DNA of 64,000 bases from Pseudomonadota bacterium (GTDB lineage Bacteria; Pseudomonadota; Gammaproteobacteria; Burkholderiales; Rhodocyclaceae), in contig CAUJIV010000049.1 of the NCBI GenBank assembly GCA_963205435.1, positions 7,932 through 71,931 on the forward strand, read 5' to 3'. The notes below the pieces were generated by a model, which was not told the DNA's origin, made no database searches, and saw nothing but the letters and a program-made list of their open reading frames with translations. Position 1 is the stretch's first letter. Every line of letters begins with the position of its first letter. Below are positions 2,096 to 61,748 of the stretch, one piece after another. The translations under genes were made by a program, and so were the position numbers.

Positions 2096-2251
2096 ACTCT
2101 CTCTTCAAATTTCCAGCCATCCGATTGTCGTCTGTGGCGGTGGCTGTATGCCGATGCGGACAATCCTGCTGTCTGCCCGCGCTCGACTTCCGGATGCGGC
2201 AACAGCTCCAATCTGGTTCGAACGATTTTGCTTTAGGCCTGCAGCATGGGC

Positions 2252-2271
2252 AATAGTCCGAACGGACTATT
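2252..2271. promoter_or_regulatory. Perfect inverted repeat, candidate operator upstream of the PEP-CTERM gene
   Basis: AATAGTCCG-AA-CGGACTATT. Confidence 0.5.
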
Positions 2272-2363
2272 CTGCAGCCACGCTCATCGGGCGGGAACGT
2301 GTTGCCCGGGCAGGCATCGTCCCGCGGCTGCGCCGCAGCCGCGGCAGGGAGATGCGCGCGCGT

Positions 2364-4013
2364 TCAGTAACCGAGCATCTCGGCGGCGTGGCGGCGGGTG
2401 GTGGCGGTGATCCTGACGCCGCCCAGCATGCGGGCGATCTCCTCGATGCGGCCGTCGCGGTCGAGCGGCGCGACGCGGCTGACGACCGCCTCGCCGGCGC
2501 CCTCCTTGCTGACCGACCACTGCCAGTCGGCGCGCGCCGCCACCTGCGGCAGGTGGGTGACGCACAGCACCTGGCGCTGGTGGCCGAGCCGGGCGAGCAG
2601 GCGGCCGACGATCTCGGCGACGCCGCCGCCGATGCCGACGTCGACCTCGTCGAAGACCAGGGTCGGCGCCTTGCCGGCGGCCGAGGCGATCACTTGGATG
2701 GCCAGTCCGATGCGCGACAGTTCGCCGCCCGAGGCGACCTTGGCCAGCGGACCGAGCGGCTGGCCGGCGTGGGCGCTGACGCGGAACTCGATGCTCTCCA
2801 GCCCGCCGGCTCCGCCCTCCGGCAGCTTCTCCAGCGCCACCTCGAAGCGGCCGCCAGGCATCGCCAGCTGCTGCAGGGTTTCACTGACCGACTTGCCCAG
2901 GGCGGCGGCGGCCTTGCGGCGGCCGCGGCTCAAGGCCTCGGCGCTGGCGAGATAGTCCTGCCGCGCCGCGGCCTCGCGCTCCGCCAGCGCGGCGGCGTCC
3001 TGCAGGGCCTCCAGCTCGAGCAGGCGGGCGCCCCAGCCGGCGAGCAGCTCGGGCAGCGCCTCGGCCTGGACGCGGTACTTGCGCGCGCAGTCGTGCACGG
3101 CCTGGATGCGGCGCTCCAGCTCGGCCAGGCGGGCGGGGTCGATGTCGATGCGGTCGCGGTACTGGCGCAGGACATGGGCCGCCTCCTGCAGCTGGATCTG
3201 GGCGCCCTCGACGGTCTCGAGGGCGCCGGCGAGCGAGGGGTCGTACTCGATCAGCTGGCGCAGCCGCGCGCCCATGCGCTCCACTTGCCACATGGCCGCG
3301 CGCTCGCCCTCGGAGAGGCCCTCGAGCATCTCCTCGACGCCAGCCTGCAGCGAGGCGGCGTGGGCGAGCCGGCGGTGCTCCTGCAGGGCGGCCGACCAGC
3401 CCTCGGCGTCGAAGCCGAGGGCGGAGACTTCTTTCACCTGCCAGGCCAGCATCTCGCGCTCGCGGGCCTGGCCGGCGGCATCCTTCTCGGCCTCGCGCCG
3501 CGCCGCGCCGGCGCGCCGCCAGGCGGCGTGGCGCTGCGCCACTTCGGCGGCGAGCGCCTGCTGGCCGGCCAGCGCGTCGAGCAGCTGCCTTTGCGCCTCG
3601 GCGCGCAGCAGGCCGTGATGGGCATGCTGGCCGTGGATGTCGGCGAGGAATTCGGCCGCCTGGCGCAGCTGGGTCAGCGTCGCCGGCGCGCCGTTGATGT
3701 AGCCGCGCGAGCGGCCGCTCGACTCGACGACGCGGCGCAGCAGGCAGGCGTCGCCGTCGAAGTCGTTGTCGCGCAGCCAGGCCGCCAGCGGGCCGCCGGG
3801 GGCGACGTCGAACTCGACGCCGATCTCGGCCTTGTCGCAGCCGGCGCGCACCGCCTCGGGATCGGCGCGCTCGCCGAGAACGAGGGAGAGCGCGTCGACG
3901 AGGATCGACTTGCCGGCGCCGGTCTCGCCGGTGAGAGCGCCGAAGCCGGGGCCAAACTCCAGCTCGAGGCGGTCGACGATGACGTAATCGCGGATGTGCA
4001 GGCGGCGCAGCAT
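2364..4013 (-). CDS. recN: DNA repair protein RecN
   Basis: [10 protein letters not shown] Walker A, ASGGELSR signature, [18 protein letters not shown]; follows nadK. Confidence 0.97.
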
Positions 4014-4968: not shown

Positions 4969-5997
4969 ATGAGGCCCGTGCTCGACCAGCGCTCGCAGAT
5001 CCTGCTGAAGACCCTGATAGAACGCTATGTGGCGGAAGCCCAGCCGGTGGGTTCGCGCGCCCTGTCGAAGCACTCCGGGCTGGAGCTGTCGCCGGCGACG
5101 GTGCGCAACGTCATGTCCGATCTGGAGGAGATGGGCTTCATCGCCAGCCCGCACACCTCGGCCGGTCGGGTGCCGACGGCGCGCGGCTACCGCTTCTTCG
5201 TCGACAGCCTGCTCACCGTGCAGCCCCTGCCCGAGGCGCAGCTGCACGAGCTGGAGGAGCAGCTGCAGCCGGACCAGCCGCAGCGCCTGATCACCGCCGC
5301 CTCGCAGCTGCTGTCGGAGCTGACGCGCTTCGCCGGCGTCGTGCTGGCGCCGCGGCGGGTGACGCCGAAGATCCGCCACATCGAGTTCCTCGGCCTGTCG
5401 GAGAAACGCATCCTGCTGATCCTCGTCACCGCCGAGGGCGACGTGCAGAACCGCATCCTGTTCACCCGGCGCGACTACAGCGCGGCCGAGCTGGTCAGCG
5501 CGGCCAATTACCTGAACCAGAACTTCGCCGGCCTCGATTTCGCCGAGATCCGGCGGCGCGTCCAGGAGGAGCTGCGCCAGCTGCATGCCGACATGAGCGA
5601 GCTGATGAGCGCCGCCATGGAGGCCGGCGGCGAGGCGGTGGCGGACAGCAGCGACCCCTACGTCCTCTCCGGCGAAGGCAACCTGCTGGAAGTGGCGGAC
5701 ATCTCCTCGGACATGAAGCGGCTGCGCGAGCTGTTCGCCCTGTTCGAGCAGCGCACCGGCCTCGCCCAGCTGCTCGACCTGAGCAATCGCGCCGAGGGCG
5801 TGCAGGTGTTCATCGGCGGCGAATCGGGTCTGGCGCCGCTCGACGAATGCAGCGTCATCACCGCCCCCTACGAAGTCGATGGCTGCGTCGTCGGCTCGGT
5901 CGGCGTCATCGGCCCGACACGCATGGCCTACGATCGCGTCATCCCCATCGTCGACATCACGGCCAAGCTGCTCTCGGGCGCCCTCTCCGCGCCATGA
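4969..5997 (+). CDS. hrcA: Heat-inducible transcription repressor HrcA
   Basis: [40 protein letters not shown]. Confidence 0.97.
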
Positions 5998-12037: not shown

Positions 12038-13174
12038 ATGGCAAGCAAGCGCGACTACTACGAGACCCTCGGCGTCAATCGCGACGCCAGCGACGACGAA
12101 ATCAAGAAGGCCTATCGCAAGCTGGCCATGAAGCACCATCCGGACCGCAATCCGGACAATCCCAAGGCCGAGGAGCAGTTCAAGGAAGCGAAGGAGGCCT
12201 ACGAGATCCTCTCCGACGCGCAAAAGCGCGCCGCCTATGACCAGTACGGCCACGCCGGCGTCGATCCGCAGGCCGGCATGGGCGGCTTCGGCGCCGGCGG
12301 CGCCGGCATGGGCGGCTTCGCCGACGCCTTCTCCGACATCTTCGGCGACATTTTCGGCGGCGCCCGCGGCGGCGGCCGCGCCGGCGTCTATCGCGGCGCC
12401 GACCTGCGCTACAACCTGGAAATCTCGCTGGAGGACGCCGCGCGCGGCACGGAGACGCGCATCCGCATCCCGACCATGGAGGAGTGCGAGGCCTGCGGCG
12501 GCAGCGGCGCCAAGAAGGGCACCTCGCCGACGACCTGCCCGACCTGCCACGGCCACGGCCAGGTGCGCATGCAGCAGGGCTTCTTCTCGATCCAGCAGAC
12601 CTGCCCGAAATGCCACGGCAGCGGCCGCTTCGTGGCGGATCCCTGCGCCACCTGCCACGGCGCCGGCCGCGTCAAGCAGCACAAGACCCTGTCGGTGAAG
12701 ATTCCTGCCGGGGTGGACGAAGGCGACCGCATCCGCCTCTCCGGCGAGGGCGAGCACGGCATGGGCGGCGGCCCGCCGGGCGACCTCTACGTGCAGATCC
12801 ACATCAAGCCGCACCCGGTCTTCCAGCGCGAGCACGACGATCTGCACTGCGAGATGCCGGTCAGCTTCACCGTCGCCGCGCTGGGCGGCGAGATCGAGAT
12901 TCCCACCCTCGACGGCATGGCCAAGATCAAGATCCCGGCGGAGACGCAGTCGGGCAAGACCCTGCGCCTGCGCGGCAAGGGCATCAAGGGCGTGCGCAGC
13001 CACGCCCGCGGCGACCTGCTCTGCCATGTCGTCGTCGAGACGCCGGTGCACCTGACCGAACGGCAGAAGGAACTGCTGCGCGAGCTGGAGGCGATCAACA
13101 TCAGGGACGGCTCGAAGCACAATCCGCGAGCGAAGTCCTGGATGGACAAGGTGAAGAACTTCTTTGCCAGCTGA
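12038..13174 (+). CDS. dnaJ: Chaperone DnaJ
   Basis: J-domain HPD, G/F region, four CxxCxGxG repeats. Confidence 0.99.
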
Positions 13175-59330: not shown

Positions 59331-60574
<1,244 letters not shown>

Positions 60575-60578
<4 letters not shown>

Positions 60579-60682
60579 GATTTCACACTTGTCAGCTTGT
60601 CAGGTTCAGGAGGCGGCAGGCCCGAGGAGTGGATGATCCAGTCCTCATACGGCAAAGCCAATCCAGAAGTCTCGAGAATCAT
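60575..60682 (-). CDS. Candidate 35-aa ORF coupled at both ends
   Basis: [35 protein letters not shown]. Its ATG overlaps the stop of the duplicated argF end; its TGA overlaps the argG ATG. Confidence 0.4.
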
Positions 60683-60743
60683 TGGCCCACACGGCCCAAC
60701 AACAGAAATTCCATCAGCGCCTTCTGCGCATGGAGCCGATTTT
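60679..60743 (-). repeat. Synonymously diverged direct repeat of the argF 3' end (copy of 60825-60889)
   Basis: 60/65 nt identical; both copies encode [20 protein letters not shown]-stop. Confidence 0.97.
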
Positions 60744-60828
60744 GTCTTTGGCCGGCGCTGCGCGCCTTGACCTTCGCTGCGCGAAGGTCAGCCTTCGACG
60801 AAATCGGCTCGGAAAGTCCGAGGGTCAT
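60679..60828 (-). CDS. Candidate 49-aa ORF: palindromic spacer fused in frame to the duplicated ArgF C-terminus
   Basis: [49 protein letters not shown]; ATG overlaps the argF TGA. Confidence 0.4.
   Translation of the reverse strand: MTLGLSEPISSKADLRAAKVKARSAGQRQNRLHAQKALMEFLLLGRVGQ
60733..60810. repeat. Branched palindrome between the two argF 3'-end copies
   Basis: Outer stem GAGCCGATTTTGTC / GACGAAATCGGCTC (13/14); inner hairpins GGCGC-TGC-GCGCC and TGACCTTCGC-TGC-GCGAAGGTCA. Confidence 0.9.
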
Positions 60829-61748
60829 TGGCCCACCCGCCCCAGCAACAGAAATTCCATCAGCGCCTTCTGCGCGTGAAGCCGATTTTCCGCCTCGTCC
60901 CAGACCACGCTGTGCGGCCCGTCGATCACCTCGGCGGCCACTTCCTCGCCGCGATGGGCCGGCAGGCAGTGCATGAACAGCGCGTCGGGCCGGGCCTGGC
61001 GCATCATCTCGGCATCCACCTGCCAGGCCTCGAAATCGCGCCGGCGCGCCTCGTTTTCCGCCTCGAAGCCCATCGAGGTCCACACGTCGGTGGTGACCAG
61101 GTCGGCGCCGGCAACCGCCTCCATGGGGTCGGCGAATTCCTCGTAATGGTCGGTGCCGTAGAGACCGGCCCGCTCGGGCTCGACCTCGTAGCCGGGCGGC
61201 GTGGACACATGCACGTTGAAGCCGAACACCTCGGCGGCCTGCAGCCAGGTGTTGCAGACATTGTTCGAGTCGCCGATCCAGGCCACCGTGCGGCCGGCGA
61301 TCGGGCCGCGGTGCTCGATGAAGGTGTAGATGTCGGCGAGGATCTGGCAGGGGTGGTACTCGTTGGTCAGGCCGTTGATCACCGGCACCCGCGAATGTCG
61401 GGCGAAACGCTCGACGATCTCCTGCTCGAAGGTGCGCATCATGACGAGGTCGCACATGCGCGAGATGACCTGCGCGGCGTCCTCGACCGGCTCGCCGCGG
61501 CCGAGTTGCGAATCGCGCGTGCTGAGGAAGATCGCCGTGCCGCCGAGCTGGTGCATGCCAGCCTCGAAGGAGAGCCGGGTGCGCGTGCTCTGCTTCTCGA
61601 AGATCATCACCAGCGTGCGGTCGTGCAGCGGATGGTAGGCTTCATAGCGCTTGAAGCGCTCCTTGATCCAGCGCGTGCGCTCGAAGACGTGCTCCAGCTC
61701 CTCGCGGGAGAAGTCCTTCAGCTGCAGGAAATGCCTTGGCGCGGCCAT
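60825..61748 (-). CDS. argF: Ornithine carbamoyltransferase
   Basis: FEKQSTRTRLSFE, HPCQ, WTSMG, FMHCLP, AENRLH. Confidence 0.99.
   Translation of the reverse strand: MAAPRHFLQLKDFSREELEHVFERTRWIKERFKRYEAYHPLHDRTLVMIFEKQSTRTRLSFEAGMHQLGGTAIFLSTRDSQLGRGEPVEDAAQVISRMCDLVMMRTFEQEIVERFARHSRVPVINGLTNEYHPCQILADIYTFIEHRGPIAGRTVAWIGDSNNVCNTWLQAAEVFGFNVHVSTPPGYEVEPERAGLYGTDHYEEFADPMEAVAGADLVTTDVWTSMGFEAENEARRRDFEAWQVDAEMMRQARPDALFMHCLPAHRGEEVAAEVIDGPHSVVWDEAENRLHAQKALMEFLLLGRVGQ

Follow-up and report, generated by a model that had tools for sequence, protein, structure and literature searches.

An argF–argG spacer copy of a small hairpin DNA family of Betaproteobacteria with locally matched arms and duplicated gene ends

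This study analyzed the spacer between argF and argG in a 64,000-nucleotide stretch of bacterial DNA (the window; GenBank assembly GCA_963205435.1, contig CAUJIV010000049.1, positions 7,932 to 71,931) and the small hairpin element located in this spacer. The source genome (G000) is a metagenome-assembled genome (MAG) of 2.55 Mb in 134 contigs, with 68% GC and 85% completeness. Its tmRNA tag, ANDERFALAA, is of a betaproteobacterial type. Both genes are encoded on the minus strand. The intact ornithine carbamoyltransferase gene argF occupies 60825-61748 (open reading frame list; Pfam OTCace_N and OTCace, E values from 1e-51 to 1e-53), and its downstream neighbor, the argininosuccinate synthase gene argG, occupies 59331-60578 (Pfam Arginosuc_synth and Arginosuc_syn_C). 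The tail of argF is present twice on the minus strand, as a direct repeat (D1) of 71 nt with 90% identity, which a gapped alignment stretched to approximately 76 nt. The functional copy, T1 (60819-60889), begins with AAAA in the sense of the gene, contains the final 21 codons of argF, and finishes just beyond the stop codon. The displaced copy, T2 (60673-60743), is non-functional and carries a stop codon of its own. The two copies exhibited five coding differences, all of them synonymous, and only 75 nt separate them.

The element core lies within this insert, at 60740-60803 on the minus strand, where it is bracketed by TTT and AAAA. The core matched a covariance model of the family, R1, over its full length (positions 1-64) with 76.4 bits and an E value of 6e-28. 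Read on the minus strand, its parts are the left motif (60791-60800), the long hairpin (60768-60790), the short hairpin (60754-60766), and the right motif (60744-60753); in the long hairpin, a repeat finder identified a 3-nt loop between perfect 10-bp arms. An earlier description made from the letters alone, hereafter the sequence-only reading, had proposed that 60733-60822 folds into a branched hairpin whose outer arm pairs with the duplication junction, and every arm, hairpin, and coordinate in it agreed with our direct reading of the letters and with the repeat finder. The outer arm (60797-60810, minus strand, inverted repeat I1) is the reverse complement of a junction partner at 60733-60746 on the same strand; 13 of the 14 nt are complementary (93%), and 50 nt lie between the two arms. 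The repeat bounds placed 11 nt of this partner inside the argF-tail repeat, as the first nucleotides of T2, and 3 nt outside it, as the last nucleotides of the element. The arm agrees with the downstream copy at its CTC codon and not with the functional copy. A small 6-bp hairpin at 60808-60822, visible in the sequence and seen in the minus-strand fold, straddles the boundary between T1 and the beginning of the insert.

Folding of both strands as DNA and as RNA, which the sequence-only reading had called for, yielded the branched structure on either strand. For the interval 60725-60830, the folding energy was -31.9 kcal/mol for the DNA plus strand (z -4.35), -30.1 kcal/mol for the DNA minus strand (z -4.18), and -49.9 kcal/mol for the RNA minus strand (z -4.59), and 0 of 200 shuffles matched the fold of the spacer.

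Contig 35 of the source genome carries an identical long hairpin in three tandem units of 129 nt, each of which comprises the tail of a gene other than argF and an arm complementary to the junction of that gene. When 200 genomes of the bacterial family were searched for exact matches to the long hairpin, only the source genome contained it, indicating that this hairpin variant is lineage-specific and that relatives must be searched by motif. A loose-pattern scan of genome contigs returned 120 matches, most of them due to chance and approximately 10 of them real. On the argF sense strand, the common layout is an arm, TTT, a left motif near CGGCGNAGGC, the long hairpin, the short hairpin, a right motif near GGCCGNAGCC, AAA(A), and local DNA, and the left and right motifs pair with each other to close the branched fold. 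When 29 copies drawn from six genomes were aligned, four helices were supported: 84.7% of the alignment cells were paired, compared with 73.1% in shuffled alignments and 20-44% in slid controls, and the 68 cells with double changes, against 26.9 in shuffles, were reached by 0 of 500 shuffles. Among distinct cores, the closing helix was GGC/GCC in 58, GGT/GCC in 11, and GTC/GAC in 5, and the copy in the argF spacer carries the compensated GTC/GAC form.

Model R1, which was derived from the aligned copies, comprises 64 positions and 21 pairs, and the argF copy was part of its seed. The model matched 19 sites in the source genome, namely the argF copy and 18 others. A covariance-model search, also suggested by the sequence-only reading, revealed a patchy presence of the family in 66 of 151 genomes (the source genome and 65 others) and 43 of 97 genera of the order Burkholderiales as our genome library defines it (Betaproteobacteria). 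Some genomes contain at least 35 copies, often as tandem arrays with periods of 75-224 nt. A MITE (miniature inverted-repeat transposable element) of 230-300 nt, which is bounded by terminal inverted repeats and has TTAG-like flanks, holds one or two element copies (L220-L225 in the complete genome G020; L203, L206, and L209 in G261); such copies ride passively within a true MITE and therefore inflate the copy numbers in some genomes. Rfam contains no such family; the best overlapping match at the argF spacer scored 20.5 bits against a cut-off of 35.1 and belonged to an unrelated leader, and seven further element loci yielded no match. These findings reveal that the argF spacer belongs, as a single copy, to a small hairpin DNA family that is widespread in Betaproteobacteria but has barely been described, and that the family is a distinctive, largely undescribed variant of small bacterial repeats.

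We examined the arms and duplications in 57 non-redundant copies from approximately 15 genomes. A junction-matched outer arm had been predicted, and a helix of at least 8 bp between the arm and the DNA just past the element was present in 15 of these copies, compared with 1.5% of mismatched pairs, in which the arm and the flank were drawn from different copies. Helices of at least 10 bp were present in 9 copies, compared with 0.3% of mismatched pairs (permutation p <= 2e-4), and the signal was also found in a smaller copy set. The longest arms reached 12 to 17 bp (L200 and L234). The arm is short and copies, in reverse complement, the initial 8-17 nt beyond the element, and the core thus stands at the tip of a long stem of local sequence. 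Because the outer arm varies by locus, the family does not behave as an ordinary repetitive extragenic palindrome (REP), the arm of which would be fixed.

The duplication observed at argF also recurs. In 28 of the 57 copies, the downstream DNA directly repeats the upstream DNA above the 99th percentile of the controls; 22 of these 28 strong repeats begin no more than 3 nt from the junction, and weaker repeats begin there as well. The repeats range from 12 to approximately 140 nt and terminate in the arm. The junction site is G|AAAA, within a gene and near one of its ends. The upstream copy starts at G|AAAA and is continuous with the gene body; therefore, the gene stays whole, and the downstream copy represents the displaced end. 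Genes co-oriented with the element have their 3' end duplicated, and opposed genes their 5' end. The targets named by Pfam were argF, metK, hypD, ccmE, and an AMP-binding acs-like gene, after the 3' ends of which the element lies in sense, and nuoD and a major facilitator superfamily (MFS) gene, ahead of the 5' ends of which it lies in antisense. The duplicated stretch can hold either terminal or initial codons, the latter accompanied by a new ribosome-binding site. The unit inserted at nuoD (L169) provides a new ribosome-binding site and a GTG start, and the old start persists as a decoy beside nuoC. At hypD (L234:502-963), the reading frame enters the element and stops at the TAA of a conserved TAAC, so that the element itself supplies the stop codon.

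Transfer RNA genes are targets as well. Pseudo-copies of tRNA-Ser(UGA), tRNA-Leu(CAA), and tRNA-Phe(GAA) were identified, with a variant of the element that carries an extra 5' hairpin in the anticodon loop before the A-run. The arrays of broken tRNAs each adjoin an intact tRNA. In the source genome, they occur on contig 128 (5900-6530), contig 69 (100-620), contig 65 (8480-8682), contig 112 (1-140), and contig 124 (27026-27193). Several contigs of the MAG end inside such arrays, indicating that the arrays break the assembly.

The fold of the family is specific to one strand. The sequence-only reading had pointed to c(GNA)g loops, and the inner hairpins were indeed capped by GCGNAGC mini-hairpins: in 75 distinct cores, this motif occurs 87 times on the element sense strand and 0 times on the other. 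The G-T wobbles of the closing helix likewise suit the sense strand only. GCGNAGC mini-hairpins are exceptionally stable as DNA (PMC13037366). The orientation of the element tracks the geometry of the gene end and not the direction of transcription, which argues for a role at the level of DNA rather than RNA, and the confinement of the loops to one strand, combined with either gene orientation, favors a role as single-stranded DNA. No clear replication bias was evident in one complete genome, where the folding strand was the lagging-strand template in 14 of the 23 copies listed (dnaA at approximately 0.5 kb, with the terminus assumed to lie opposite the origin).

These data also bear on the possibility that the spacer is a functional RNA element of argF–argG, such as a terminator, an attenuator, or an mRNA stabilizer, in which the copied gene tail would be incidental. 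The strong fold of the RNA minus strand accords with this possibility, and REP-like stem-loops are generally known to stabilize upstream mRNA. However, no U-run follows the stems, Rfam offers no match, and the element is absent from the same operon in relatives. Moreover, its antisense position at the 5' ends of nuoD and the MFS gene renders a fixed RNA role unlikely. We therefore regard this explanation as very improbable.

The sequence-only reading had further proposed a recombination site defined by structure, acted on in trans, with an arm that encodes target specificity. The change of the arm with the junction and the one-strand loops accord with this proposal, whereas the encoding of specificity was not clearly supported, given that the same core carries unrelated arms. 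In such a guide model, the arm borne by the element would select the target by base-pairing with the gene, in the manner of IS200/IS605 guides or IS110 bridge RNAs. Arms match their junctions far above chance; good arms are found where the gene-end copies have only 75-88% identity (L162, L163, and L200), as if the pairing were maintained; and the same gene positions are used in distant genera. Nevertheless, the arms of the lineage-specific core, whose long hairpin is identical at argF and on contig 35 of the source genome, are unrelated between these two loci, and a guide leaves this rewriting of the arm unexplained. In the tRNA copies, the native anticodon stem acts as the arm. These two observations indicate that the arm must be written at each new site. 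The guide model also fails to explain the junction-anchored duplication, and at hypD in L244 the arm fits the upstream copy rather than the adjacent one. Copying of the arm from the target explains the matching at least as well as a guide does, and we consider a guide unlikely.

To place the argF copy in its history, we compared the locus with relatives and with metagenome contigs. Contigs from three independent metagenome studies displayed an identical or near-identical arrangement with the unit retained; hence, the arrangement is not an assembly artifact of the source MAG. In three genomes of the same genus, the argF–argG gap is approximately 20 nt and contains no element, and in the source genome it is 246 nt. 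The gene on contig 35 is likewise followed in same-genus relatives by a terminator alone, with no insert. The relatives are informative at three of the positions at which T1 and T2 differ, and the functional copy has the ancestral state at all of them. The synonymous-only differences and the ancestral state of T1 suggest that the argF tails are two functional alleles that were joined and not a gene end with a freely decaying copy. In one freshwater metagenome contig, 60699 is joined to 60846, so that exactly 146 nt, or one unit, is missing, and T2 and T1 are fused. This variant could be the ancestral empty site or a recombination deletion between the tails, and its hybrid make-up suits deletion at least as well.

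A further 94 nt on the minus strand (60579-60672), between the displaced argF tail and argG, constitute an extra spacer that is not found in same-genus relatives and yields no match to model R1. This spacer holds a 10-mer common to the argF tail of the relatives. Judged from the shared 10-mer, it may be an older unit that has decayed and that still holds part of the native argF tail.

An alternative explanation involves no transposition; in it, the units are variable-number tandem repeats (VNTRs) that arise from replication slippage, template switching at stable hairpins, and recombination with imported alleles, the cores being homogenized by gene conversion. Arrays with periods of 75-224 nt are common, the loss or gain of a 146-nt unit has its crossover within the repeat, the argF tails differ only synonymously, as recombined alleles would, and the Beta-proteobacterial repeat element (BRE) has been described as a VNTR (PMC3110155). 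What such processes leave unexplained is the spread of one 64-nt core to dozens of unrelated genes in 43 genera, always with G|AAAA and a locally matched arm. In addition, same-genus relatives contained no seed copy at the two loci checked. We judge this explanation to be rather unlikely.

No recombinase gene lies within the 75-nt insert, and any enzyme must therefore act in trans. The sequence-only reading had suggested a search for co-occurring genes, and in this respect no HUH or REP-associated tyrosine transposase (RAYT) gene, IS110 gene, or reverse transcriptase gene could be tied to the family. The RAYT domain Y1_Tnp was found in four of five other carrier genomes checked. Across the order, it was present in 48 of 66 carriers and 51 of 85 non-carriers, a weak association with an odds ratio of approximately 1.8 that is uncorrected for relatedness. 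RAYT is not required for the element family. The sole RAYT gene of the source genome adjoins an IS110-family transposase gene on contig 64 (approximately 1-360, 2169-3439, 5460-5760, and 12250-12600), and this pair is surrounded by arrays of classical GTAG-headed REP hairpins that are distinct from the element family.

The source genome contains six tyrosine recombinase genes, all on other contigs. This finding is relevant to the idea that the two argF tails are the attL and attR remnants of a large integrase-borne island that once resided in the argF tail and was later deleted. The duplication of a gene end is, as is generally known, a hallmark of islands that integrate at 3' ends. However, the repeats are just 75 nt apart, copies of this core occur at many genes and in many genomes without an adjoining integrase, and the location of the six genes likewise argues against an island remnant. 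We attach hardly any weight to this idea.

We propose that the element is a gene-less insertion cassette of approximately 64 nt that is moved in trans as folded single-stranded DNA, with the arm and the duplication written at insertion; in our assessment, the considerations for and against this reading are evenly balanced. The cassette is or was presumably moved by a putative nicking or joining enzyme. In the proposed scheme, the target would be nicked at G|AAAA, and the element would be attached through its 3' end to the 5' A-run. Extension of the free 3' end with strand displacement would produce the spare gene end, and the new strand would switch onto the displaced flap and copy its first nucleotides, which would form the arm. 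This strand would then be ligated to the 5' end of the element, held beside the junction by the closing helix. Units could afterwards multiply or collapse through recombination between the repeated gene ends. The wider proposal is an undescribed mode of insertion, in which folded single-stranded DNA of approximately 64 nt is joined at G|AAAA, repair synthesis remakes the gene end and writes the arm, and an essential gene survives, with a putative, unrecognized trans-acting nickase or recombinase of Betaproteobacteria performing the reaction. We advance this proposal only tentatively, as possible rather than probable.

Several observations weigh against the cassette reading. No mobilizing enzyme was found for the element family; reverse transcriptase was absent from the source genome, which is 85% complete; and Y1_Tnp was absent from 18 of the 66 carriers, including a complete genome with at least 35 copies and several copy-rich genomes. 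The spare end is often unlike both the displaced end and the native downstream DNA, which suggests that it may be carried in with the cassette rather than copied on the spot. The recurrence of the same genes across genera could be explained in part by vertical descent and local amplification. The arm score and the divergence between T1 and T2 were uncorrelated (rho 0.08, p 0.70); arm quality thus does not fall with divergence, and a pure decaying insertion scar does not fit. Some perfect arrays carry poor arms (L230 and L239). The 146-nt variant is explained equally well as a deletion by ordinary recombination, and no insertion event was caught. Finally, the proposed scheme leaves unexplained an "empty" form of the element.

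In this "empty" form (L203 and L209, approximately position 430; L169:1625-1640; and L244, beyond the second copy of the tail), the left motif is fused to the right motif as a short GNA-loop hairpin, and both inner hairpins are gone. The form could represent the footprint of an excision or a precursor.

Three other candidate explanations were rejected. A diversity-generating retroelement was dismissed because the differences between the argF tails are not adenine-specific and reverse transcriptase is absent. A tandem-inversion-duplication requires a palindrome at the upstream boundary too, and none is located there. The idea that the left and right GNA triplets share the same N as a target duplication was discarded because the N letters differ within copies.

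Among published elements, BRE (Hot et al. 2011, PMC3110155) is the nearest that we found. It is a repeat of approximately 90 bp in Bordetella and other Betaproteobacteria, described as a VNTR and a possible mobile element. Similar to our family, BRE is small, GC-rich, and hairpin-rich, forms variable-number tandem arrays, overlaps gene ends in some copies, and is flanked by T- and A-runs (PMC3110155). However, the Bordetella sequences in its supplement, compared by eye, do not display the left and right motifs or the long hairpin of the element family and share with it only GC hairpins, a GGCC-plus-A-run end, and the T- and A-run flanks; neither gene-end duplication nor a locally matched arm was reported for BRE (PMC3110155). 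Another abundant repeat of the source genome, a CCCCTTCC...GGAAGGGG hairpin with a GCGNAGC-type hairpin (contigs 11, 68, 125, and 131; contig 81, 35739-35930; and contig 86, 250-340), looks by eye closer to the published BRE than the family studied here.

The family also resembles several other systems. REPs and bacterial interspersed mosaic elements (BIMEs) with their RAYTs are likewise short extragenic palindromes with many copies, arrays, and a presumed trans action on folded single strands; the element family differs in lacking, in the 29-copy alignment, the conserved GTAG-type head that REPs carry on a fixed palindrome of 20-40 nt, in having locus-specific rather than fixed arms and a long duplication, and in having no tie to RAYT. 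Integron attC sites are similarly set by structure and strand, occur in arrays of content plus site, and have a site arm that pairs across the unit boundary. However, the outer ends of the element are TTT-left motif and right motif-AAA and not R'' (RYYYAAC) and R' (GTTRRRY) boxes, and the sole attC box look-alike lies within the long hairpin, where its second position covaries freely. The unit content is a copy of the end of the neighboring gene, and no integron platform was seen in the genome, the tyrosine recombinases of which were not sorted by class. The IS200/IS605 elements and their gene-less derivatives, the palindrome-associated transposable elements (PATEs), share hairpin-defined ends, single-strand chemistry, insertion beside a short target word, and brief internal guides whose bases pair with the site of cleavage. 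IS200/IS605 elements make no target duplication and have a strong lagging-strand bias, whereas the element family exhibits a duplication of 12-140 nt, with junction-anchored repeats among the 28 copies described above, and in one complete genome 14 of the 23 copies listed have the folding strand on the lagging-strand template.

Other comparisons concern the duplicated end. Islands and phages at the 3' ends of genes and tRNAs also bring or create a spare end, keep the gene intact, leave the old end as a direct repeat, and target tRNA anticodon loops; in contrast, the element insert is 64-75 nt without an integrase, either end of the gene can be replaced, and an inverted arm is added. MITEs have terminal inverted repeats of their own and a target duplication of fixed length, whereas the arms of the element family are derived from the target and the duplication spans 12-140 nt. 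The tRNA-linked repeats of Escherichia coli and the mycobacterial interspersed repetitive units (MIRUs) likewise consist of intergenic units in tandem, in which the end of the gene or tRNA ahead of them is repeated, but they are not known to have any sequence in common with the element family.

Regularly spaced short repeats on contigs 56, 52, and 88 of the source genome, with periods of approximately 72-73 and 69 nt, may be clustered regularly interspaced short palindromic repeat (CRISPR) arrays.

If the cassette reading is true, a very common repeat, which nearly half of the genomes sampled from a large bacterial order carry, would be a mobile element. Such an element would combine three features that have not been described together: the absence of a gene of its own, a single-strand-specific GCGNAGC fold, and gene-preserving insertion into housekeeping genes and tRNAs by duplication of their ends. 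It would account for many of the odd duplications of gene ends and the split copies of tRNAs, would be a further reason why operon spacers expand and why small upstream or downstream open reading frames arise, and would point to a putative enzyme that recognizes the shape of DNA. Owing to the locally matched arm, it can be tested directly whether the arm is a guide or a scar. Should the units do no more than amplify locally, they would still be useful strain markers, and assemblies are broken by them.
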